NCBI GenBank assembly: GCA_963717465.1
Contig: OY970340.1
Coordinates: 1,088,001-1,152,000, forward strand
Source: Candidatus Bathyarchaeota archaeon
GTDB lineage: Archaea; Thermoproteota; Bathyarchaeia; Bathyarchaeales; Bathycorpusculaceae
Reading direction: 5' to 3'
Length of the DNA: 64,000 nucleotides
The notes below the pieces were generated by a model that saw only the letters and a program-made list of their open reading frames with translations, ran no database searches and was not told where the DNA came from. Position numbers and translations under genes: made by a program. Positions within the stretch are counted from its first letter, which is position 1. Every line of letters begins with the position of its first letter. Below, piece by piece: positions 5,603 through 50,388 of the stretch.

Positions 5603-7224
5603 TGAAGTTGGCTGAAGCTTGGCGATTGAGCCAGTTGCCTTACCGGGAAGAGGTCTATCAGTCTTTGGCTGAAGAGAAAGGGCGAATGTGGTGGGGCGCT
5701 TTCGGTCGGCATCAATCAGGCATGGAAAACCAAAACGACTTTGAATTAGCCACCAGAGTTCTTAGAATCGCAAAATTTGACAAAATCCTAGTTTCAGTTT
5801 TTAACGTGATGGTTGCAGCTTTGCCTTTTGTGATGTTACTGTTTGGGACACAAGTTTTCGGTTTAGCTGATTCGGTCGCGTTGAGTTTGGCAGTTACCTT
5901 GGGCTTCACTGCCCTGTATGCAATCCAAACTCTTTCATCGTTTGTAAGCGCTGACTCTTCAGTTTTATTGTTAATTTTACCCTTAGCGCGCAATGATTTT
6001 TCTCTGATATCGATTTTCTCTTTCATCCGATCGGTTGATTATATGGTCGTAGGCTCAGTGGCTAGTCAAGTTGTACTAGTTGCCCTCGTGACTCATTCTC
6101 CTCTTGCAGCCTTAATTATGCTTGTGACTGCAGTGATGAATCAAGTGTTTGCAGTTACGATTGCACTTTGGTTTTCAACAGTTTTCCAAAGAAACCTGAT
6201 GCGTGGCAGGAGATCAAAGGTTGATACATTTTTGCGTTTAATTTTCATTTTAATGTGGGGTTTATTGCTTGTTGGTGTAGGCTTCATGTTTGTCGTACCC
6301 TTGTATACTATGCCAGGTCAAGGCAGTCTACTGTTAGGGTTTGGCAATGTTTCAAGCGTGCTATTTGCTCTTTTGTATCCTTTCTCTACTGGCAATCTTA
6401 TAGCAGGGATAACTTTTTCCAATGTTGCAACCTTAACTATGTTAGTGTCATCCTTAACCTTGACAGGATATGCAGTGCTGACACTTGTTGCGGGAAAATG
6501 GACATTTGAAACTGTTAAACGAATATCTTTAGGCGCTGGGAAAAAAAATATCCGAGTGGCTGCAAAAGATTTTTCAGTTAAAATCCACAGCCCACTGTTT
6601 GGCTACGTCCTTAAGGACTTAAAAGTTGCCTCCAAAAATCCAGCAACCGCCTTATTCTTCGCCCTTCCGGCTTTGGAAACAGTTATGACTATTCTGCTTG
6701 TTTCGAATCTATCTACACTAAGAACTGTGTTTCTGCTTGACGCCACATTAATGGGTGCAATCTTTGCCTTACTCATACCCCTTGCATTACTAACTGCAGA
6801 AGGAAGGGGCTTTGAATATTCAAAGACCTTGCCAATCAGTTCCCGAAGAATAGTTGTCTCCAAAACTCTTGTGTCCACTGCAACGTACATTCTTGTGCCG
6901 ATAGCTTTGATCGGTTTATCCATCGTCAAACCTTTAACTTCGCCTTCCATCATTCTCATTCCATTGCTAACCACATTATCAGTTGCATCTGCAAGCATTT
7001 TTGAAATTATACTCTTCTTAAGATCGGCTGCAAAAAACAAAATCAACGCAATTGTAAACGACTTGGAAAAACTAATTGTCGGAGGTCTCGTCATACTTTT
7101 CCCGTTGGTGATGTATTCAATTGTTTTTCTTCTATCCTTCAACCATATCTTATCTATCTTAGTTATGGGACTTGTTGCCCTTTCTGAATTGACAGGGGCT
7201 ATGTATTTGCTCAGGCGCTCTTGA
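5602..7224 (+). CDS. ABC-2-type permease (multi-pass membrane protein)
   Basis: Many hydrophobic helices; TAATG stop/start overlap with the ATPase gene. Confidence 0.75.
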   Translation: MKLAEAWRLSQLPYREEVYQSLAEEKGRMWWGAFGRHQSGMENQNDFELATRVLRIAKFDKILVSVFNVMVAALPFVMLLFGTQVFGLADSVALSLAVTLGFTALYAIQTLSSFVSADSSVLLLILPLARNDFSLISIFSFIRSVDYMVVGSVASQVVLVALVTHSPLAALIMLVTAVMNQVFAVTIALWFSTVFQRNLMRGRRSKVDTFLRLIFILMWGLLLVGVGFMFVVPLYTMPGQGSLLLGFGNVSSVLFALLYPFSTGNLIAGITFSNVATLTMLVSSLTLTGYAVLTLVAGKWTFETVKRISLGAGKKNIRVAAKDFSVKIHSPLFGYVLKDLKVASKNPATALFFALPALETVMTILLVSNLSTLRTVFLLDATLMGAIFALLIPLALLTAEGRGFEYSKTLPISSRRIVVSKTLVSTATYILVPIALIGLSIVKPLTSPSIILIPLLTTLSVASASIFEIILFLRSAAKNKINAIVNDLEKLIVGGLVILFPLVMYSIVFLLSFNHILSILVMGLVALSELTGAMYLLRRS

Positions 7225-38059: not shown

Positions 38060-38773
38060 ATGGAATCGTTATATAGTGAACTAAAAGAAACTCTGAAGGC
38101 AGAAGATCCAAACAAGTTTGGGGAATTAACCCAAAAAGCTTTGGATGCCGGCGCTGACCCTTATGATTTGTTGAATAAAATCGTAGGTTACGCTAAAGAG
38201 CTTACATCGAAAAGCTGGTGGGCTGGAGGAACAGAAGGAGCGAGCAATGTTTCCGAAAAAGATGCTCTGCTACTATCAGATCTTATTGTGATAGGCGAAT
38301 GCCTCATAAAAAGTACTGGCATTATAAAACCTCATTTGTTAGCAAGCGGAAGGAAAGCGGAACTTCCAGGAAAAATCGTTCTGGGAACTATCGAAGGGGA
38401 TGTACATGATATTGGGAAAAGCCTAGTTAAAACGATGTATGAATCAGCTGGGTACCAAGTTAATGATATTGGCCAAGATATTCCAGTCAAGAACTTTGTA
38501 ATGGAGACAAAAAGAACAAAGGCCGATGTAGTTGGCATCAGTTGTTCCATGTCTATGTGCAAAACAGCAATTCCTAAAGTTGTAAAAGAACTACAAAGAA
38601 TGGGAATTCGAGACAACGTCAAAGTAATTGCAGGTGGGCAATCAACCTTCGAAAGTGATGTGCCACTATATGGCTTGGATGCTTGGGGAGCAGACATGGT
38701 TGATGCAGTTAAAAAAACTGATGAATTAATACGAATACTTAAAGAAGAGAAATTGAAGAAGGGGGTGAAATGA
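38060..38773 (+). CDS. Corrinoid (B12-binding) protein
   Basis: EGDVHDIGK, GISC, IAGG. Confidence 0.9.
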   Translation: MESLYSELKETLKAEDPNKFGELTQKALDAGADPYDLLNKIVGYAKELTSKSWWAGGTEGASNVSEKDALLLSDLIVIGECLIKSTGIIKPHLLASGRKAELPGKIVLGTIEGDVHDIGKSLVKTMYESAGYQVNDIGQDIPVKNFVMETKRTKADVVGISCSMSMCKTAIPKVVKELQRMGIRDNVKVIAGGQSTFESDVPLYGLDAWGADMVDAVKKTDELIRILKEEKLKKGVK

Positions 38774-40045
38774 TGAATATAGAATGGAATTCTGAAGAAA
38801 TTAATCGTGACTATCCCTTGTGGTGGAATAAAGGGCCATTCAGTTACCAATTCACCGCTACGGAAGAGGTTATACTAGAGAAGGCGCGAGCAAAGTGGCT
38901 TGAACGCAAGAAAGATGAACCCATGATGCCTCGTGAACGATGGGCTAAAGCCCTATTTACTGATGAATCAATAGATCGGTTACCTTGTCACAACACAGGT
39001 ATGCACCAGACTGTATGTCGAATATTCGATGGTTTCTGTGATCCACCATCAATCGTATCCATGAAAGATATGATAAATAACCCCAACTTAGATGCAATAG
39101 GACAACTATTATGGTATGCAAAATTTGCAAGCACTTGCGACATGATGTGGCCATACAACTATGGCTTTGGAGAAGAACTGGTGACTAGGAAATTCAGATT
39201 CATCGAAAATGGTCCACCACTGGCTGTGGAGCCTTTTGTCAGGACCAAAGAAGATGCTCTATTCTTCTTAGACAATGTTCCGGAGCCTGCCTTGAGAGCT
39301 GGAACTTGGCCTATATATTTCTGGGAAACTAAAACACTCATGAAACTATGTTCCAGAGATGCCAATAGTAGGATCCACTTGTGGCGGTCCAGTAACCATG
39401 GCTGGCTTCCTGAGGGGAATCAAGGATTTTGTATTGGATATTCGAAATAATATTGAGCTTGCCGAGCTATGTCTCAAGGGTACAACTGCTCTCTTGAAGA
39501 AGAAGATTGACAAACAGACAGAGATACTTGGTCAGCAAATAGATGACACCGGAGAGGGTAATTGGATAACTTGGTGTGACTCAACTAGCTACTTGTCGGG
39601 GGAGGAATTCGCAAAGGTATTTGACATAACCTACGTTGATGCGGTGAAATACTGTGCAAAGAAAGGATGGCAGCCTGAAGTTATCCCTGAAGGGCCAATG
39701 GTTGCTCACGTGCCAATCGCAAAGTGTCTCAGTGAAAACGGTGGTGGTGGAATGTTAGCTTTCAGTGAACATCCAAGCATTGAGGAATGGTATGATAACA
39801 CACGAAAATATGATAATGTGTGGGCTCATGATGCATTTGATAATGTAATGATGTTTTCTCCTGATTATCAAAAAGCTATCCGAGAAGATCTGGCACGTCA
39901 CGCAAAAATATTTGTAAAGTATCCGACAAAAGGACATAGAACCTATTTATCAGTGCCTACCGGAGATCCGACGATACCTCTTTCAGCTATTGAATTTGCA
40001 AGCAAGGCAATACTTGAAACCTTCAAATATCCACTTCAAATTTAA
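38770..40045 (+). CDS. URO-D/MtaA-family methyltransferase-like protein with a one-base frameshift near 39351 (error or pseudogene)
   Basis: M.PRER...DRLP N-terminus, GGP.T.A..LRG, CD; removing one T joins KLC to PEMPIVG; ATGA overlap with corrinoid gene. Confidence 0.65.
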
Positions 40046-41185: not shown

Positions 41186-42772
41186 ATGAAGGGGTTACGT
41201 GTTTTAGCAGCATTGGTTTGCGCACTTTTTGTTTTCAGTTTAGTTTTGATTCCGTTAACGAATGCTGACTGGATAATGTTTCGCGGAGACCTGTCTCGCA
41301 ATGGTGTAGGAACAGGTAATCCGGCGCTTACGCCCACGCTACTCTGGAATTATACCACCGGCGGCATTGTTTTTTCGTCTCCTGCTGTTATAGATGGTGT
41401 AGTCTATGTGGGTTCACTGGACGGTAACGTTTATGCTTTAAACGCTGCTAGCGGCATCCAACTTTGGAATTATACTACCGGCAACTATGTTGAGTCATCT
41501 TACACTGTTTTAGGTATTAGCACGCTTGCAGACTCCCATGGGGGTCCTAGTGAATCGGTTTATTCGTCTCCTGCTGTTGTTGGTGGTGTGGTCTATGTGG
41601 GTTCACAGGATGGTAATGTTTATGCTTTGAACGATACTAGCGGCATCCGAGTTTGGAATTATACTACCGGCGGAGGGATTTGGTCATCTCCTGCGGTTGT
41701 CAACAACGTGGTCTACGTGGGCTCCGGTGACGACAATGTTTATGCTTTGAACTCTACCAACGGTGCCCAACTTTGGAATTACACAACTGGCAATTTTGTT
41801 GATTCGTCTCCTGCTGTTGTCAACGGCGCAGTCTACATAGGCTCCGATGACGGTAACGTTTATGCTTTGAACTCTACCAACGGTGCCCAACTTTGGAATT
41901 ACACAACCGGCGACTATGTTAGGTCGTCTCCTGCTGTTGTTGGTGGTGTGGTCTATGTGGGTTCATACGACGATAAAGTTTATGCTTTGAACGCTACTAC
42001 CGGCACCCAACTCTGGAATTACAGCACCGGCAGCGCGGTTTATTCGTCTCCTGCTGTCGACGATGGAGTCATCTACATAGGCTCAGAAGATGGTAATTTT
42101 TATGCTTTGAATGCTACCATTGGTAGCCAACTTTGGAATTACACCACCGAGGGCGGGATTGAGTCGTCTCCTGCGGTTGTCAACAACGTGGTCTACGTCG
42201 GCTCCGATGACGGTAACGTTTATGCTTTAAACGTTGCTACCGGCGCTAAACTTTGGAATTACACCACCACCGCCGATGTTGAGTCGTCTCCTGCGGTTGT
42301 CAACAACGTGGTCTACGTCGGCTCCGATGACGGTAACGTTTATGCTTTGGGTAGTTCTTCAACGCCAACTCCAACGCCCACTCCAACTTTGTCGCCGGCA
42401 GGTACAGCAGCATTTGTTTTCAGTCCACTCGACTGGGCCATAGTTGTAGTTGTCATCGCTATCATAATGTTACTTTTAATATTCCTTCTATTGTTCAGAC
42501 GCGGCTGCAAGCTTACGGTGACGGTGCAAGATGCGGAAACGCTCTCGCCGATTTCAGGAGCAACGGTTTCAGCTAGTGGTCCGAAATCTTTGGCAGGTAC
42601 TACTGGAAGCAATGGACAAGCTGTTTTTAGTAACGTGAAAAAAGGCGATTATTCAATCATAGCCAGCGCCACAGGATACAACACTTCAATGCCAGCATCC
42701 GTTTCAGTGAAAAATAAAACTGATTACGTAATTAAGCTGAGCCAAATGGTGCCCAAGACCAAAGAAACCTAA
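41186..42772 (+). CDS. PQQ-like beta-propeller repeat surface protein (8 blades), TM helix, C-terminal carboxypeptidase-regulatory-like domain
   Basis: Eight LWNY[TS]T....SSPAV..GVVY.GS.D..VYAL repeats, PT linker, TM helix. Confidence 0.9.
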   Translation: MKGLRVLAALVCALFVFSLVLIPLTNADWIMFRGDLSRNGVGTGNPALTPTLLWNYTTGGIVFSSPAVIDGVVYVGSLDGNVYALNAASGIQLWNYTTGNYVESSYTVLGISTLADSHGGPSESVYSSPAVVGGVVYVGSQDGNVYALNDTSGIRVWNYTTGGGIWSSPAVVNNVVYVGSGDDNVYALNSTNGAQLWNYTTGNFVDSSPAVVNGAVYIGSDDGNVYALNSTNGAQLWNYTTGDYVRSSPAVVGGVVYVGSYDDKVYALNATTGTQLWNYSTGSAVYSSPAVDDGVIYIGSEDGNFYALNATIGSQLWNYTTEGGIESSPAVVNNVVYVGSDDGNVYALNVATGAKLWNYTTTADVESSPAVVNNVVYVGSDDGNVYALGSSSTPTPTPTPTLSPAGTAAFVFSPLDWAIVVVVIAIIMLLLIFLLLFRRGCKLTVTVQDAETLSPISGATVSASGPKSLAGTTGSNGQAVFSNVKKGDYSIIASATGYNTSMPASVSVKNKTDYVIKLSQMVPKTKET

Positions 42773-43690: not shown

Positions 43691-44797
43691 TTATTCCATT
43701 GCACTCATTGGGTGCACGGATAGCTTAGGCATCTCTGCGAGAGCGCCTGGTGGCATGATGTTTGGATATGGTTTCCAGCATCGGATCGAGGTTGATCCCA
43801 GTCCGTTAGTTAGCTTCTTTTTTCTGCCGTCTTTGTAAGTAAAGGTACCTTCGAGCTTATCCCAGTCCAATGCTAAAACTGGAGTATCTGGCACTTGTCC
43901 AGTGCTGCCTGCCAACATACCGCCAGTTACATTTGTGTCAAACTCTAAAACTCCAGTGTCACATTCTGCGACTATTTTGTAATGCGTTGGAACGAAAATT
44001 CCAGCTTGGCGAAGATATGCCCATTCACTGTGTATTATGTCAAATTTAACAACTGGGAAGTACTGTTTCTCATCGACTAAGTAAAGTGACATGTCTTTGT
44101 GGTTGCCGTACTTGAATTCGTACATGCTACCGAAGACTTCATCAAAGTGGAACCACATCCAGTCCTCCCATCCTCCTATTTCCGCGGGGCTTGTATCTAA
44201 TGCGATATATCGTTCTCGGACGCCTTTGCCTTTAAAGTTCACCTTTTTCCCTTTGAGAGTAAATGTGCCTTCAATGGTTCCTGCCCAAAAGTATCCATAG
44301 GCAATGCTGTGAGTTGTAAGCACAGATGGCTTCTCATTTGGTCTCCCGTACCAAGTTGGATATCCTGCACCTTTGTGAATAAAGTCAACTTTCAGCTCGC
44401 TTTTCTTGTCCTCCACATTGTAGTGCCATGTGTGGTCGTCTTTGCATTTGAGATGAAAATCTCCACAATCAATTGCGACCTCATTGGCTGACTTCTTAAT
44501 CGTGAGAGTGCCTCCCGGATAAATAGTCCGGGCTATCGGCGATGTTGGAAAGTCGGCAACCTTGTATATTGATCCAGGTAATTGAGCAACCGTTCCTTTG
44601 TCCGAGGTAACTCTTAGCATGAACATGTCTATCTTCTCCAACTTTAAGGACATCGGTGTTACTCCAAGCCGATACTGTTTGCCATCTTCTCCGAAGACAA
44701 CTGCATCAATCATCCAATCCAAAAAACCTGCCTGGGCGCCCTCAGGAATTCCTGCTCCTTCTACATCTAATGTAACTTCCGGATTTGATACTTTCAC
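43691..44797 (-). CDS. Hypothetical protein, possibly AttH/tocopherol-cyclase-like beta-barrel
   Basis: LDW, GTIEG..TLKGK.V.F.GKG..ER, W.DW.WF; GGAGG upstream of GTG 44797. Confidence 0.6.
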   Translation of the reverse strand: MKVSNPEVTLDVEGAGIPEGAQAGFLDWMIDAVVFGEDGKQYRLGVTPMSLKLEKIDMFMLRVTSDKGTVAQLPGSIYKVADFPTSPIARTIYPGGTLTIKKSANEVAIDCGDFHLKCKDDHTWHYNVEDKKSELKVDFIHKGAGYPTWYGRPNEKPSVLTTHSIAYGYFWAGTIEGTFTLKGKKVNFKGKGVRERYIALDTSPAEIGGWEDWMWFHFDEVFGSMYEFKYGNHKDMSLYLVDEKQYFPVVKFDIIHSEWAYLRQAGIFVPTHYKIVAECDTGVLEFDTNVTGGMLAGSTGQVPDTPVLALDWDKLEGTFTYKDGRKKKLTNGLGSTSIRCWKPYPNIMPPGALAEMPKLSVHPMSAME

Positions 44798-44847
44798 CGT
44801 ATTCACCTCCTTTGAAAATTAAAAAAAAGAGAACTAAAAAAAGGACC

Positions 44848-47157
44848 TTATGGTCCTGCGTGTCCTGTGTTTGTTGGGTATACTTTAGCGAGAAGGGATT
44901 TGAAGTTACAGGCTCCTAGTTCTGGGCTAAGCTGTTCCGGGTCGTCTGGCACTGTGGCATTGATGTTCCAGTCTGTCCATCCATACAGTGTTGGTTCCTC
45001 AGCTGGTAGCTCTGGACGCCACCAACCGTGTTCAGGAGAAACAATCTTTGGATTAACACCGAAATCATACCGTACCTGCTGCATGCATCTGCCAACAGGA
45101 GTCTCAATCCAGACCCATTCGCCATCTCCAATGCCCATGTTGCGGGCGGTCAATGGATGCATCTTAACTCGCGGGAATGGACGTAGATGTCTCATTAAGC
45201 TGAGATGTCGATGCTCGCCATGTTGAGCTTCTTGGAATCTTGCTCCACTGCACATAATCAACGGATAGTCCTTAGCAATATCAGGCGCCGCAATCGGCGT
45301 CCAAGGATTCTCAGTGTAATACGGCAATGGATCATATCTTAGCTTTTCTAGAATGGTTGAGTAGAGCGCGACTTTGCCTTCAGGTGTTCCAAATCTTCTC
45401 ATCAATCCAGTCCCTGGATCAATTTCCTCGTACTTCTTGTATCTTGGCTCGTATGGTGGTACACCTTTCCATTGCTTTATGACTTTTTCACGAGTCCAGC
45501 CTGATCCCTCATAGAACATGTCCTGAAGTTCTTCTAGAGTCTTCCATGGCCAAGCGGTTTTGAGTTTTTCCTCGCCGACTACACCTACAGCAAGATGTCG
45601 GTATATTATGCTGTCATCCTCTAGATCCCACAGGCCAGGTATTTTCATTGGTAACGCGCGGTCACCTGCAATTTCAAACTCGACTTGTCCCTGAGTTGAA
45701 ACAGATCCGTAACCTGATGGTCTCTCAAATTGGCTGGTGCCTGGTAACACGTAGTCTGCCAGCATTCCTTCAGGAGTCATCTGAGCACATTCAATGTAAA
45801 CGAAGAGTTCAAGCTTCTTTAGAGCCTCATACACTTTTTTGATGTTGGGGTAGCATCTCATCGGGCCAATTTCACCAGAAATCATTGCCTTGATCGGATA
45901 GGGTTTTCCTGTTATAATTGCTTCCATTGTAGCTGGAAAATTAGGACCCCTTGTTCCACCAGATGTGCTCTGTCTCCAATATCCTTTGTCTGCACTTGCC
46001 CCTAACAGATGAGGCGTAATATTGGCGTTTTCAGCTCTATAATTCTGGATTCCTAACTGTTTTGCCATTTGTTCACGGTTGGCAATCTTTGCTAATGAAG
46101 CTGTTAATTGAACAGCAGTGTTGAAGTTTGGTTTTGCATGTAGGTATTCTCCGCCTTCTACGTCGATGTTTCCTGTTAAAGCAGGTAGCATGTATTTGGA
46201 TCGGACGTTGCTCATAGAGTTTCTGCCTCCATTTTCTATGGCGTAACCGTATGGGAACGTGCAGGGATTGTTTTTAACTATCCACCTGGCTGCTTCTCTG
46301 ATTTTTTCGGCTGGAATCCATGTGATTTCTGCAGCTTTCTCAGGTGTATACTGCTTAACGCGTTCTTTGAGCTTATCAAATCCAAAACACCATTTCTCCA
46401 CAAACTCGTGATCGTATAGGTCCTCTTCAATGAGAACGTTCATTATTGCCATAATCAGCGCAGTGTCAGTTCCTGGTCTAATCGCCAACCACATTTCTGA
46501 GTTCCTAGTAGTCTCTGTGAACCTTGGGTCGACGTTAAGCATTTTCGCGCCACCTTCCACTCCTGAAACAAATCCCGGCCATGAATACGTCCAGGATTCA
46601 CTTGGGTTTGTGCCGATCGTAAAGATGCCTTTGGTCTTGCCTGGAATTATGTTCGCATATGTTAATCCCACGCCATAGCCTAACCCTAAGGCTACAAACG
46701 TGGGGCCTGCTCAAAACTGAGCTGCAGCAGAGCCAAAGTTGGGGCTACCTATTGCCACATGGAAAGCGGCCAGTCCGATACCTAAGCCACAAGATCGGCC
46801 GGTGCCATGGAAACCACATACTGTTTCATAGCCATATTTTTCCCCTAATTCCTTTACCTTGGAGGATATTTCGCTGTATGCTTGCTCCCAGGATATTTTC
46901 TGCCATTTGCCTTCGCCGCGTTTGCCAATGCGCTTCGTTGGGTACATTGGCCTGTCCTTGTGGTAAATGTACTCTACAGAATACTTCCATTTCTGACAGT
47001 ACGGCCCAGGATTAAATGGGCTTTCCCAGTCAGGTTCAACTTTAACGATTTTACCGTTCTCAACAAATTCAAGCAACTGACAAGAACCAGTACTGCAAAA
47101 ACCGCAAATGCACCTGTGCACTCCATCGTAGCTTTTTGGGTCTTCAATTTCACTCAT
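44848..47157 (-). CDS. Molybdopterin/tungstopterin oxidoreductase (DMSO-reductase family, acetylene-hydratase-like clade) with in-frame TGA at 46711-46713; candidate selenoprotein
   Basis: CGFC....C...C 4Fe-4S motif, KR.GKRGEGKW..ISWEQA, VDPR, IRPGTD.A, ADYVLP, C-terminal HGWW; the two ORFs are in frame: SAAAQF-TGA-AGPTFVALGLGYGVGLTYAN. Confidence 0.8.
46667..46704 (-). promoter_or_regulatory. Candidate bacterial-type SECIS hairpin
   Basis: CCCACG-TTT-GTAGCCT-TAGGGTT-AGGCTAT-GG-CGTGGG, starting 6 nt after the TGA, with a G-rich apical loop. Confidence 0.45.
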
Positions 47158-47212
47158 CAATTTTATCTCCTATTTTTATATGCTTTACACCATGAAAGCC
47201 AATTACTCGACT

Positions 47213-47427: not shown

Positions 47428-49419
47428 TTAAATTTCTCTTCCCAATTTGTGACCAAAATACACAGCGTCGCAAATGTTGTGTGGACTGTTAGCATCTCCG
47501 AGACGGAAGAGGTTGCTGTTTTCCTTCCATCCTTGCTCTCTCAATTGCCAGAACAGCGTGTCGTTTGGCTGTTTTGATGTACAGAGTACAAATGTATCAG
47601 CTTCTACTTCAAACATTTCATGGTTAAAGCCGTTCATGAAACCGCCCTTATTCCCATTAATATATGTAAGCAGTGACATTGGACTGAACTTTACTCCTTT
47701 TGACATAGGACGCTCGTACATTTGAGCAAATTGCAAAGTCATGAACGTATCATTGCCGCCAATAAAGTGCCCCGCTGCCCTGATGTCAACAGTTTTTCCT
47801 GCATCAGCCAACATTTCAGCAAGACCTAAACCTTCATCATAACCAATTTGATCATAAAGTATTATTCTGGGACCAAGTTTGTTCATATCAACTTTGCCTG
47901 AGAGTATGTCTTCCCCGTTTACTACGTTTGGTTGATCCCAACCCTCTATGGCACAATATACGCCTGCATTGTCACCATCACGTTTAGGCTCTGCTCCAGT
48001 AGCAACTACCATCACATCAGGATTTATGCTTTTAACAAGTTCAAGTGTAACTTCCTTATTGAGGACAATCTTAACTCCTAACTTGTCACACTGTAACTTT
48101 AGCCATCTCTTGAAGCCATCATATTCCTGTCGTACAGGCAGTTTCATTGCTAAATTAATGGCCCCGCCGACGTCATTTGACTTTTCGTAAATAGTAACCT
48201 CATGACCCCTTGTTGTTGCGATTCTTGCGAATTCCATGCCACACGGACCAGCACCGGCAACCAAAATGTTCTTTCTCTTTGCAGCAGGCATAAGCGTTCC
48301 TATTCCCCAGTATTTCTCTTCGCCGACCGTTGGATTTACAGTGCACATCCTGGCACCAGTTTTCATGCAGCCTTCATTTTCATAAATGCATGGCCTTATG
48401 TCATCTAATCTTCCTGCCTTGGCTTTATTTGCAAATTCAGGATCAGCTATTTGACCCCTGCAAACGCCGATCCAGTCAGCTTTGCCTTCAGCTAAGATTT
48501 TTTCAGCGAATACTGGATCGTTAATTCTCCCTATGCAGCCTATAGGTATTTTCTTTACAACTTCTTTTACAGCTTCAACTCCGTACAGTTGGTAGCCAGG
48601 CTCCATGTACAGTGGAGCAACTATTACGTTTAGCCCTGAGGGTTCGATTGCTATGTCTATGTCCAAAGCATCAACCTTGTCTTCCAGTTTCTTTGAAATT
48701 TCTGCTCCATCCATAGGTCCTATCCCACCAGGAATAAATTCATCAACACACAGCCTGGTAATGACTGCCATGTCACTGTTAACGCCTTCCCTGCATCTTT
48801 TAATTGCTTCGTAAAGATACCTTAATCGATTATCTAAGCTTCCACCCCACTTGTCTTTTCGCCTATTCGTTAAGGGAGACATGAAATTGTGCACCATGCC
48901 CCCATGATCATGAATTTCGATGCCATCAAACCCTGCTTTCGCAGCGTTCTGTGAAACCAATCTGAAACCGTCAAGTGTCGATTCAATTTGCTCATCAGTC
49001 ATCATTGCATTTGAGACCCTGGGATCTTCTGGGTCTACAGTTCTTGAAGGACCCCATCTACCCATCCAAACCCCACTAAGTCCTATTTGGGCGAAAATTT
49101 TTGTACCAGTGCCTGCATCGTGAACCATATCAACTATTCTTTTCAGTGCTGGAACTATTTCTGGCAATGTCCCGCGTGGATATGCAGCAAAACGAGAGGT
49201 GCTGGGACGCCCGTTTTCAAATGGATAACATGAAATGAATCCATAACATATCAGCCCACAGCCACCTTTCGCTCTTTCAGCCTGATAGTACGCCAAATGT
49301 TCTGTTGGTATGCCGTCTTGTATATGTGCATTTGCGTGGCCGGATAACATAATTCTATTAGGAATTGTTACGGGCCCCATTTTCAGCGGAGAAAAAAGAT
49401 ACTTAAATTTTACACTCAA
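47428..49419 (-). CDS. NADH:flavin oxidoreductase (Old Yellow Enzyme family with FAD/Fe-S domain; TMADH/BaiCD/2,4-dienoyl-CoA reductase-like)
   Basis: LFSPL..G.V...NRI, RAKGG.G, AGFDGIE.H, N.R.D.WGGS..NR, IRPCI....C, AGAGP.G. Confidence 0.9.
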   Translation of the reverse strand: MSVKFKYLFSPLKMGPVTIPNRIMLSGHANAHIQDGIPTEHLAYYQAERAKGGCGLICYGFISCYPFENGRPSTSRFAAYPRGTLPEIVPALKRIVDMVHDAGTGTKIFAQIGLSGVWMGRWGPSRTVDPEDPRVSNAMMTDEQIESTLDGFRLVSQNAAKAGFDGIEIHDHGGMVHNFMSPLTNRRKDKWGGSLDNRLRYLYEAIKRCREGVNSDMAVITRLCVDEFIPGGIGPMDGAEISKKLEDKVDALDIDIAIEPSGLNVIVAPLYMEPGYQLYGVEAVKEVVKKIPIGCIGRINDPVFAEKILAEGKADWIGVCRGQIADPEFANKAKAGRLDDIRPCIYENEGCMKTGARMCTVNPTVGEEKYWGIGTLMPAAKRKNILVAGAGPCGMEFARIATTRGHEVTIYEKSNDVGGAINLAMKLPVRQEYDGFKRWLKLQCDKLGVKIVLNKEVTLELVKSINPDVMVVATGAEPKRDGDNAGVYCAIEGWDQPNVVNGEDILSGKVDMNKLGPRIILYDQIGYDEGLGLAEMLADAGKTVDIRAAGHFIGGNDTFMTLQFAQMYERPMSKGVKFSPMSLLTYINGNKGGFMNGFNHEMFEVEADTFVLCTSKQPNDTLFWQLREQGWKENSNLFRLGDANSPHNICDAVYFGHKLGREI

Positions 49420-49797: not shown

Positions 49798-50388
49798 TTA
49801 TTTTTCGGTCAGCTGTCTCTTACTAGGAGGATGCAATGGTTTTTTAGGCTGAAGTAGTATGGACTCCAAGTTTCGCAATGAGAACGGTGTCGGAAATTTG
49901 GTGCTCGTATGAAAAATGAAGCTACTCATGTCAATAGATGGATGAGATGGAAATTCTTCTTTGGATTTCTTAGCTAGTTCCAAGTAGTCATCATAACTCT
50001 TATGTGCAGATATAACAACCCAATTTACTCCCCACGCATCTTGCTCTTGCAAGATACCCAGTATTTCTGGGTGCCTCTGAGATAATTCTTTAACTTCTTC
50101 GGCTTGCTTTTGTGTTATCACTTCAGTAGTTTTGGCAAAAGAAAATATGATTAATTCTATTCCTATTTTATGGAGGTCAGGTATTAACGTGTACTCTTTT
50201 ATATAACCCTCGTGCTCTATCTTTCTTTTTCTTCTAGATATTGTTGAGTTGCTTATACCCAAATTCTTAGCAATCACTCTATCGCTTCTACAACCCAACT
50301 TCATCAGAGCAAACAGAATTCTTAAGTCCATTTGCTCACTTTTATCTTGCTTACCCATAAACCCCACAATAATAGGGGGAGTACTCAA
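49798..50388 (-). CDS. Lrp/AsnC-type winged-helix regulator (start probably ATG 50361)
   Basis: RSDR.IAK.LGIS..TISRR..K.E.EGYIKEY; shares FP.PFSLRN C-terminus with 15754..16386. Confidence 0.8.
   Translation of the reverse strand: MSTPPIIVGFMGKQDKSEQMDLRILFALMKLGCRSDRVIAKNLGISNSTISRRKRKIEHEGYIKEYTLIPDLHKIGIELIIFSFAKTTEVITQKQAEEVKELSQRHPEILGILQEQDAWGVNWVVISAHKSYDDYLELAKKSKEEFPSHPSIDMSSFIFHTSTKFPTPFSLRNLESILLQPKKPLHPPSKRQLTEK

Follow-up and report, generated by a model that had tools for sequence, protein, structure and literature searches.

The locus considered here raises the question of whether an in-frame TGA in an archaeal gene is a stop codon or a codon for selenocysteine (Sec). It lies in a stretch of 64,000 nucleotides (nt) from a Candidatus Bathyarchaeota archaeon (assembly GCA_963717465.1), hereafter the window, which corresponds to C1:1088001-1152000 of a single 3,053,889-bp contig (C1). 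On the reverse strand, the list of open reading frames (ORFs) holds two pieces, 46711..47160 (149 aa) and 44848..46671 (607 aa). An interpretation made earlier from the letters and this list (the sequence-only reading) had taken them for one frame split by one TGA, and translation of 44848-47157 agrees: the single internal stop, in the context GSPNFGSAAAQF*AGPT, is a TGA at 46713-46711, codon 149 counted from the ATG at 47157, and read-through gives the predicted 769 aa. We assign a probability of about 0.88 to the reading that this TGA is a Sec codon and that the gene encodes one 769-aa cytoplasmic enzyme of the molybdenum- or tungsten-(Mo/W-)bis-pyranopterin type, with an N-terminal [4Fe-4S] cluster and Sec149 as metal ligand, one of eleven paralogues in the genome. 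The two short annotated genes almost certainly form a single unbroken gene for a selenium enzyme of a previously undescribed kind.

The read-through protein contains the Pfam domains Molybdop_Fe4S4 (residues 15-66; 31.5 bits, cut-off 22.7), Molybdopterin (72-483; 87 against 24) and Molydop_binding (646-742; 47.9 against 26.8), which places it in the MopB/dimethyl sulphoxide (DMSO)-reductase superfamily. No NCBIfam model exceeds its cut-off, the best being PhsA (246.5 bits against 694) and the formate dehydrogenase alpha subunit, TIGR01591 (239.9 against 666.25). The top relative of solved structure is acetylene hydratase (2e7z; E 7e-99, residues 16-760 against 4-725), and in that alignment codon 149 stands opposite Cys141, the tungsten ligand; in the match to Escherichia coli FdhH (1aa6; 134.8 bits) it stands opposite the X that denotes Sec140. 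The proposal that the TGA occupies the Mo/W-ligand position is borne out by the homologues, the ligand column being Cys in 110/110 full-length sequences (MAFFT alignment) and in 77/80 bacterial loci, where the three exceptions are local misalignments or gaps. Metagenome loci were found with an alignment of N-terminal fragments (80 loci, 34-51% identity); 75 of them extend over the column, with Cys in 68, another residue in seven and TGA in none. Cys18, Cys21, Cys26 and Cys54 align with the [4Fe-4S] cluster cysteines of acetylene hydratase and are Cys in 95, 100, 93 and 108 of the 110 homologues, respectively.

The position of Asp13, the catalytic, water-activating residue of acetylene hydratase, is occupied here by Ser22, which is invariant in ten Sec-type fragments; among the 110 homologues, 64 have His there, 17 have Lys and the rest other residues, none of them Asp. 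The residue after the ligand is Ala150, opposite His141 of FdhH. A true acetylene hydratase was rejected on the grounds of the Asp13 to Ser22 replacement and of TGA (Sec) in place of the Cys thiolate that ligates tungsten, and a formate dehydrogenase alpha subunit (FdhA/FdhH) on the grounds of its TIGR01591 score and of Ala150 in place of His. Serine for Asp13, together with the lack of His after the ligand, places the protein by its residues in an acetylene hydratase-like branch that is neither acetylene hydratase nor formate dehydrogenase.

A tblastn search of the genome with the read-through protein returned eleven loci at 41-78% identity. All eleven carry TGA in the ligand column, as the sole stop within the aligned segment covering that column, and eight are otherwise unbroken; a chance nonsense codon is excluded because the same single TGA stands in the same column at all of them. 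A twelfth, distant paralogue (31% identity) has TGT at the ligand codon. This is the genome's single Cys-type paralogue, whose context, GSPNWMSGLSMCMGNT, is near acetylene hydratase's own motif; p10, the most divergent of the Sec paralogues, is 2 kb away (C1:1817834-1820059 and 1822105-1824351). Purifying selection acts on both sides of the TGA, the ratio of non-synonymous to synonymous substitution (dN/dS) being ∼0.1 for codons 1-148 and 150-769 alike in pairwise comparisons of the window gene with five paralogues (for codons 150-769, dN 0.16-0.22 and dS 1.3-1.9). The nearest database proteins are all pieces of 560-607 aa that begin past the TGA, and a 148-aa N-terminal query found 15 proteins, nine of them on other contigs (five NCBI, four ENA), all nine terminating at the TGA column; database pieces of the Sec family are 143-172 or 560-607 aa long.

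It had also been pointed out that TGA is an ordinary stop in the window, and this is so: the TGAs at 7224, 30396 and 38773 terminate ORFs of 540, 382 and 237 aa, the first two being followed by another in-frame stop 2-4 codons on. Genome-wide, TGA terminates 253/1032 stop-to-stop frames of at least 300 codons, and global reassignment of TGA is ruled out on this basis.

The genome encodes a complete archaeal-type Sec machinery. Two tRNA-SeC genes were identified by ARAGORN and score 71.8 and 61.8 bits for Rfam tRNA-Sec (cut-off 47); SepSecS (488.9 bits) adjoins the first. SelD (240 bits) is itself interrupted by a TGA, in the motif HG*SCK, and adjoins one 744-aa open frame in which PSTK and SelB are fused. 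The SelB part of this fusion scores 272.7 bits and the PSTK part 151 bits, which is under its cut-off of 290.5, yet the Pfam family KTI12 is matched at E 1e-34. Both this fusion and a second copy comprise, by Pfam, KTI12, GTP_EFTU, D2 and aSelB_III plus a short C-terminal part, with no SelB winged-helix family at E <=0.1 among the best 25 of 27 and of 31 Pfam families. The GTPase motifs of copy 2 are altered (GHCKHGKT, and PGN against PGH in copy 1); this copy may have a specialised role or be unable to hydrolyse GTP. The sources of fusion homologues at 69-70% identity label them Ca. Bathyarchaeota or Bathyarchaeia, in keeping with the earlier label 'Bathyarchaeia-like'; protein-language-model look-alikes (Atlas) are only bacterial CysN/CysC-type kinase-GTPase fusions (0.89). 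Since the PSTK-aSelB fusion has been published for diverse Bathyarchaeota (PMC8762117; PMC9499178; here and below, cited articles are used in the parts of their text available to us), Sec use in the lineage is already known. The sequence-only reading had offered a Sec machinery in this lineage or a transferred selenoprotein gene; the former is supported, the machinery being the lineage's own and not an arrival with the gene, with SepSecS over its cut-off in 12/401 sampled genomes of the class, this genome included.

The claim that recoding must depend on context now has a concrete candidate in a stem-loop that starts 6 nt past the UGA, within the coding sequence (CDS), with a minimum free energy (MFE) of -22.2 kcal/mol in the window gene. 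A stem-loop follows the UGA in 11/11 paralogues, with the main stem at +6 nt in ten and at +7 in p10, and MFEs over 60 nt range from -16.6 to -24.5 kcal/mol. In the 11-sequence alignment, 93.4% of cells are paired, a value reached by 0/500 shuffles and falling to 21-50% when the partner is slid by 1-3 columns, and four of the five inner-stem pairs change on both sides. Synonymous conservation, scored at degenerate sites with identical amino acid, points the same way: the 15-codon stretch from codon 151 has a codon identity of 0.777 against a mean of 0.555 and ranks first of 742. The corresponding 60 nt past the Cys codon of 79 bacterial homologues give a mean shuffle z of -0.42 (seven below -2), compared with -2.03 for the Sec paralogues and +0.84 for the genome's own Cys paralogue (mononucleotide shuffles, here and in the flanks).

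The hairpin also recurs elsewhere. Among 493 in-frame TGAs flanked by open frame, the 21 strongest downstream hairpins include 15 at Sec-candidate codons: eleven in the acetylene hydratase-like genes, two in an HdrA-MvhD gene and two in a corrinoid-methyltransferase-like gene. The other top matches (986218, 1984463, 1611389, 1118925, 1284627 and others) were judged by eye to lie in antisense or non-coding frames and were set aside. The HdrA-MvhD gene has TGAs at classical Sec positions and a strong hairpin at +6 after each. Among other genomes of the class, eight have TGA forms of this gene that keep the hairpins (MFE at position 212 from -20.7 to -27.4, at 682 from -22.8 to -24.3), whereas four Cys homologues with similar peptides do not keep the hairpins (-4.1 to -11.2 and -10.2 to -19.4, respectively). 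In one relative, a Sec-type HdrA-MvhD gene with two TGAs and both hairpins adjoins a Cys-type copy (67% identity, no hairpins), near SepSecS (G259:C9:1074977-1083320). The 6-nt spacing is common to three unrelated coding contexts, acetylene hydratase-like, HdrA and MvhD.

We consider it likely that this hairpin is the signal for reading the UGA as Sec. Its placement would be of the bacterial style, and not that of the 3'-untranslated region (3'-UTR) element of methanogens and Asgard archaea; the SelB part lacks the winged-helix domains by which bacterial SelB binds its hairpin. A search with a simple pattern of our own (background 0.0005) found GAA_A-type elements in 0/11 3' flanks (300 nt) and 0/11 5' flanks (200 nt), the Asgard eSECIS-like type not being pattern-searched. 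No unusual folding was seen in either set of flanks, and the 3' flanks have T-tracts within ∼35 nt of the stop. Rfam at E <=10 gave five chance matches and no family of the selenocysteine insertion sequence (SECIS), and a DNA pattern of TGA plus hairpin had no match in metagenome contigs.

Several observations weigh against the Sec reading or the role proposed for the hairpin. The TGA at 46711-46713 is taken from the assembly, and Sec incorporation is predicted from the genes. By Pfam, the aSelB part is without any known SECIS-binding domain. The outer stem encodes conserved Gly-Pro-Thr and Gly-Val-Gly and is invariant in 10/11 copies, so that it is uninformative by covariation. The loop, UAGGGUU (UAGGAUU in most paralogues), has G at positions 3-5 and not at the first two as in bacterial SECIS, and fits N1-G-[G|U]-N-N2 only if read as AGGGU/AGGAU inside a U.U mismatch. 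The UGA of SelD has no clear +6 hairpin and is followed by a long stem-loop from ∼18 nt, and the SelD recoding signal may differ from the +6 hairpin. The GAA_A search pattern is crude and self-made. Three paralogues, p8, p9 and p11, have one additional frameshift apiece, none in a long homopolymer, with TGA and hairpin kept; this may reflect partial decay of the family or assembly indel errors. A close copy of the gene is found in 0/11 other genomes with SepSecS, and 0/40 other genomes among the relatives match at E <=1e-50 (0/24 within the genus).

The alternative that survives best, although we regard it as unlikely, is that Sec is inserted and the signal lies elsewhere, in an unrecognised 3'- or 5'-UTR SECIS or in none, the hairpin being a by-product of conserved codons. 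In its favour, the archaeal SECIS elements hitherto described are all located in UTRs (PMC9499178; PMC13188914; PMC11227280), and the properties of aSelB, the outer stem and SelD noted above count on the same side; however, the flanks of all eleven genes lack a GAA_A-type element and fold unremarkably, Cys homologues with similar peptides lose the hairpin, and the synonymous sites at the hairpin, whose spacing is shared by the three contexts, are the most conserved of the gene.

It is considerably less probable that the UGA is recoded as Cys or another residue, instead of or in addition to Sec, through one tRNA-Sec-like gene, by analogy with tRNA-ReC, which in bacteria reads a UGA downstream of a SECIS as Cys (PMC13582414). 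The duplication of tRNA-Sec and of the fusion, with the altered motifs of copy 2, would suit such a role, and cross-talk of SepCysS with Sep-tRNA-Sec has been discussed for Bathyarchaeota (PMC8762117). Nevertheless, both tRNAs exceed the Rfam cut-off, SepSecS and SelD are intact, and a UGA with a hairpin would bring no evident gain over TGC or TGT for encoding Cys.

The remaining alternatives have next to no probability. A sequencing or assembly error for TGC or TGT gains some room from the read data: four DNA runs matched the stretch, with shares no higher than 0.05-0.07, and yielded at 80% likeness just relatives' contigs (80-95% like), one of which spans 46611-46713 with 18 letters differing, with none of those listed covering the whole stretch; no RNA run among the sequencing runs listed contains it. 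Even so, the identical base error would be needed at eleven independent loci, fragments from other assemblies (the nine N-terminal pieces) end at the same column, and HdrA, SelD and the corrinoid-methyltransferase-like gene also carry TGAs at known or plausible Sec positions. A pseudogene, dead through termination at the TGA, would fit the splitting of the frame by gene callers, the short database pieces and the three frameshifted paralogues; against it stand the recurrence of the codon in one column of diverged loci, selection as strong downstream as upstream, the strictly conserved ligand Cys of that column and the full Sec machinery. Two polypeptides, a 148-aa FeS subunit and a 607-aa subunit restarted at the GTG at 46671, 13 codons past the TGA, would sacrifice the ligand residue and intervening codons that are among the gene's most conserved, and each of the 110 full-length homologues is one continuous chain that has Cys at the column. 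The ligand column, the paralogues, the outside fragments and the machinery all favour the original suggestion that the TGA encodes Sec.

As to the origin of the family, a FastTree phylogeny of 117 rows (the eight intact Sec genes, the Cys paralogue of this genome and those 108 homologues that measure 650-800 aa, which excludes two others by length; the frameshifted p8, p9 and p11 were also left out) resolves the Sec genes as one clade with SH-like support of 99, its sister (100) being three Cys-type metagenome proteins, P0012, P0013 and P0017. The Sec clade probably arose from a Cys-type ancestor, one Cys-to-Sec change before the duplications being the simplest reading of the tree. Within the searches made, members of the Sec family were seen only in this species, in at least one further NCBI assembly and on four ENA contigs. 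Two of the SepSecS genomes (G075 and G136) have matches at 33-40% identity with no stops, and related loci in genome contigs are bacterial only (29-38% identity), mostly from Eggerthellaceae/Coriobacteriia, Peptococcaceae, Desulfosporosinus and Geobacter, among them anaerobes with a known aromatic metabolism.

Table 1. Features of the locus and of the selenocysteine system (window coordinates unless prefixed C1, which are contig coordinates).
Feature	Position	Strand	Basis or remark
Sec-type Mo/W enzyme gene, TAA stop included	44848..47157	-	One frame, single internal TGA; Pfam domains; 2e7z match
UGA codon 149, read as Sec; predicted Mo/W ligand	46711..46713	-	Column alignments; same TGA in 11 paralogues
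Codons of Cys18, Cys21, Cys26 and Cys54, N-terminal [4Fe-4S] motif	46996..47106	-	Pfam Molybdop_Fe4S4; homologues; acetylene hydratase alignment
In-CDS stem-loop, candidate SECIS, 6 nt past UGA	46667..46704	-	Outer stem CCCACG/CGUGGG, inner stem, 7-nt loop UAGGGUU
371-aa downstream neighbour, ∼50 nt past the stop	43691..44806	-	0 Pfam families
663-aa flavoenzyme, upstream neighbour, enoate/dienoyl-reductase type	47428..49419	-	PF00724 E 2.5e-42 (Old-Yellow-Enzyme FMN); PF07992 E 1.2e-11 (pyridine-nucleotide-disulphide oxidoreductase)
196-aa winged-helix regulator (AsnC/HTH_24-type), upstream of cluster	49798..50388	-	Pfam
SelD, itself a selenoprotein	C1:951636-952682	+	HG*SCK, UGA at 951702, ∼codon 14
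Second PSTK-aSelB fusion, 740 aa, 54% identical to first	C1:2827363-2829585	-	
Second tRNA-Sec gene, beside second fusion	C1:2829638-2829723		
Frameshifted Sec paralogues p8, p9 and p11	C1:130832-133142, 616645-618946, 2797292-2799581		

The surroundings of the Sec genes (Table 1) offer some indication of their role. Regulators of the same ∼200-aa family as the one upstream of the window gene lie within 6 kb of 9/11 Sec loci, and Old-Yellow-Enzyme-like proteins are near 4/11. The 371-aa neighbour resembles, as a lead from the language model (Atlas 0.98, 226/256 features), the double-lipocalin AttH/CrtC hydratase/Diels-Alderase proteins; its type was not found beside other Sec paralogues. MttB-like and MtmB-like methyltransferases with corrinoid proteins are found near p3, p4, p7 and p8. 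Directly downstream of p4 (C1:116500-122800) stand an MtmB-like protein of 453 aa, an MttB-like protein of 529 aa, a corrinoid protein of 217 aa and a MarR/HTH regulator. The recurrence of such sets beside p3, p7 and p8 would connect the Sec enzymes with methyl transfer by corrinoid proteins. Methoxylated aromatics derived from lignin are growth substrates of Bathyarchaeia. A tentative possibility, drawn by analogy, is a reductive action of the enzymes on organic substrates that are aromatic or unsaturated, in the manner of catechol dehydroxylases, with the enzymes each under its own regulator and neither hydrating acetylene nor oxidising formate.

Two further observations concern other genes of the window. 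At 38060-40045 (forward strand), a corrinoid (B12-binding) gene ends in ATGA overlapping the next start, and the gene that follows is broken into two ORFs, 38770-39450 and 39359-40045, which overlap in different frames, through a frameshift or an assembly error. The first ORF matches the two-TGA methyltransferase-like gene (C1:2822990-2824228) in its N-terminal half at 28% identity (E 8e-19); a match of the second to the same gene had been made by eye and was not confirmed by BLASTP. At 41186-42772 (forward strand), a probable surface protein of 528 aa combines a signal-like N-terminus with beta-propeller repeats of PQQ/BamB type, a linker rich in Pro/Thr, a transmembrane stretch and a CarboxypepD_reg domain.

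On our reading, a further branch of the Mo/W-pyranopterin superfamily uses Sec to bind its metal, and sulphur is naturally exchanged for selenium in an acetylene hydratase-type site, at a time when chemists are modelling selenolate tungsten-acetylene complexes (PMC11220754). As the database entries are all truncated pieces, annotation and metabolic reconstructions of Bathyarchaeia overlook the eleven enzymes. Should the in-gene hairpin be the signal, a search for archaeal selenoproteins restricted to 3'-UTRs would miss a whole lineage, and if an aSelB without a known RNA-binding domain does find a local hairpin, this would raise a question on how SECIS placement evolved between the domains of life. 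Taken together, the evidence leans, somewhat less firmly than for the hairpin alone, towards a joint reading in which Bathyarchaeia mark Sec-UGA by an in-CDS +6 hairpin read by archaeal machinery, which would be a third Sec-decoding arrangement, and in which the ligand Cys of an acetylene hydratase/catechol dehydroxylase-like enzyme became Sec in eleven copies, giving the first Sec-ligated Mo/W family outside formate and formylmethanofuran dehydrogenases, probably for reductive aromatic or unsaturated metabolism.

The closest known enzyme, the acetylene hydratase of Pelobacter (Syntrophotalea) acetylenicus (2e7z), shares with the window protein the domain order, the [4Fe-4S] cysteines and the ligand column, and both are cytoplasmic single chains with no signal peptide. 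They differ in Sec for Cys, in Ser22 for Asp13 and in Ala after the ligand where acetylene hydratase has Ile. Acetylene hydratase is a non-redox enzyme (Seiffert 2007, cited in PMC10100899); the Sec ligand, in contrast, suggests redox chemistry. FdhH and FwdB share the superfamily and Sec as Mo/W ligand in the same column, but FdhH is matched at only 134.8 bits, has His141 where Ala150 stands here and belongs to a separate branch. A 2023 survey lists, in its available text, only FwdB, FdhG and cytoplasmic formate dehydrogenase as Sec users, and Cys for acetylene hydratase (PMC10100899). The catechol dehydroxylases of Eggerthella and Gordonibacter, which bind bis-molybdopterin guanine dinucleotide, are described as the closest kin of acetylene hydratase, with homologues in aromatic-degrading anaerobes (PMC7028382). 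Likewise they come as many paralogues per genome, most with an adjoining regulator; unlike the window protein, they are bacterial and have Cys (77/80 loci), the kinship here being drawn through Eggerthellaceae loci at 31-37% identity and the tree in PMC7028382. A Sec-containing acetylene hydratase-like enzyme or an in-gene archaeal SECIS was not found described in the literature searched, subscription journals and supplements being outside its scope, and the available text of a 2026 review does not contain the string 'Bathyarchae' (PMC13188914).

With respect to the recoding signal, the eaSECIS (a UTR element with two stems, a GAA_A bulge and three S-S pairs) has no match in the eleven 3' or 5' flanks by our simple pattern. 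The bacterial SECIS model (PMC13188914) is closer, with four of its five constraints fitting: the hairpin agrees in its in-CDS placement and has a loop of 7 nt (3-9 in the model), an upper stem of 7 bp (4-16), a UGA-to-loop distance of 22 nt (16-37) and an MFE well beyond the limit of -7.5. It differs from the bacterial system in its archaeal host, in the PSTK/SepSecS route and in an aSelB without winged-helix domains. The decoding machinery itself is that of the Bathyarchaeota Sec system (Mukai et al. 2022, PMC8762117), in whose available text 'SECIS' does not occur, 'selenoprotein' occurs once and no Mo/W selenoprotein is named. The same fused PSTK-aSelB frame is present, SelD is likewise clustered with the fusion, and the genome described here differs from that system in having two copies of both the fusion and tRNA-Sec.

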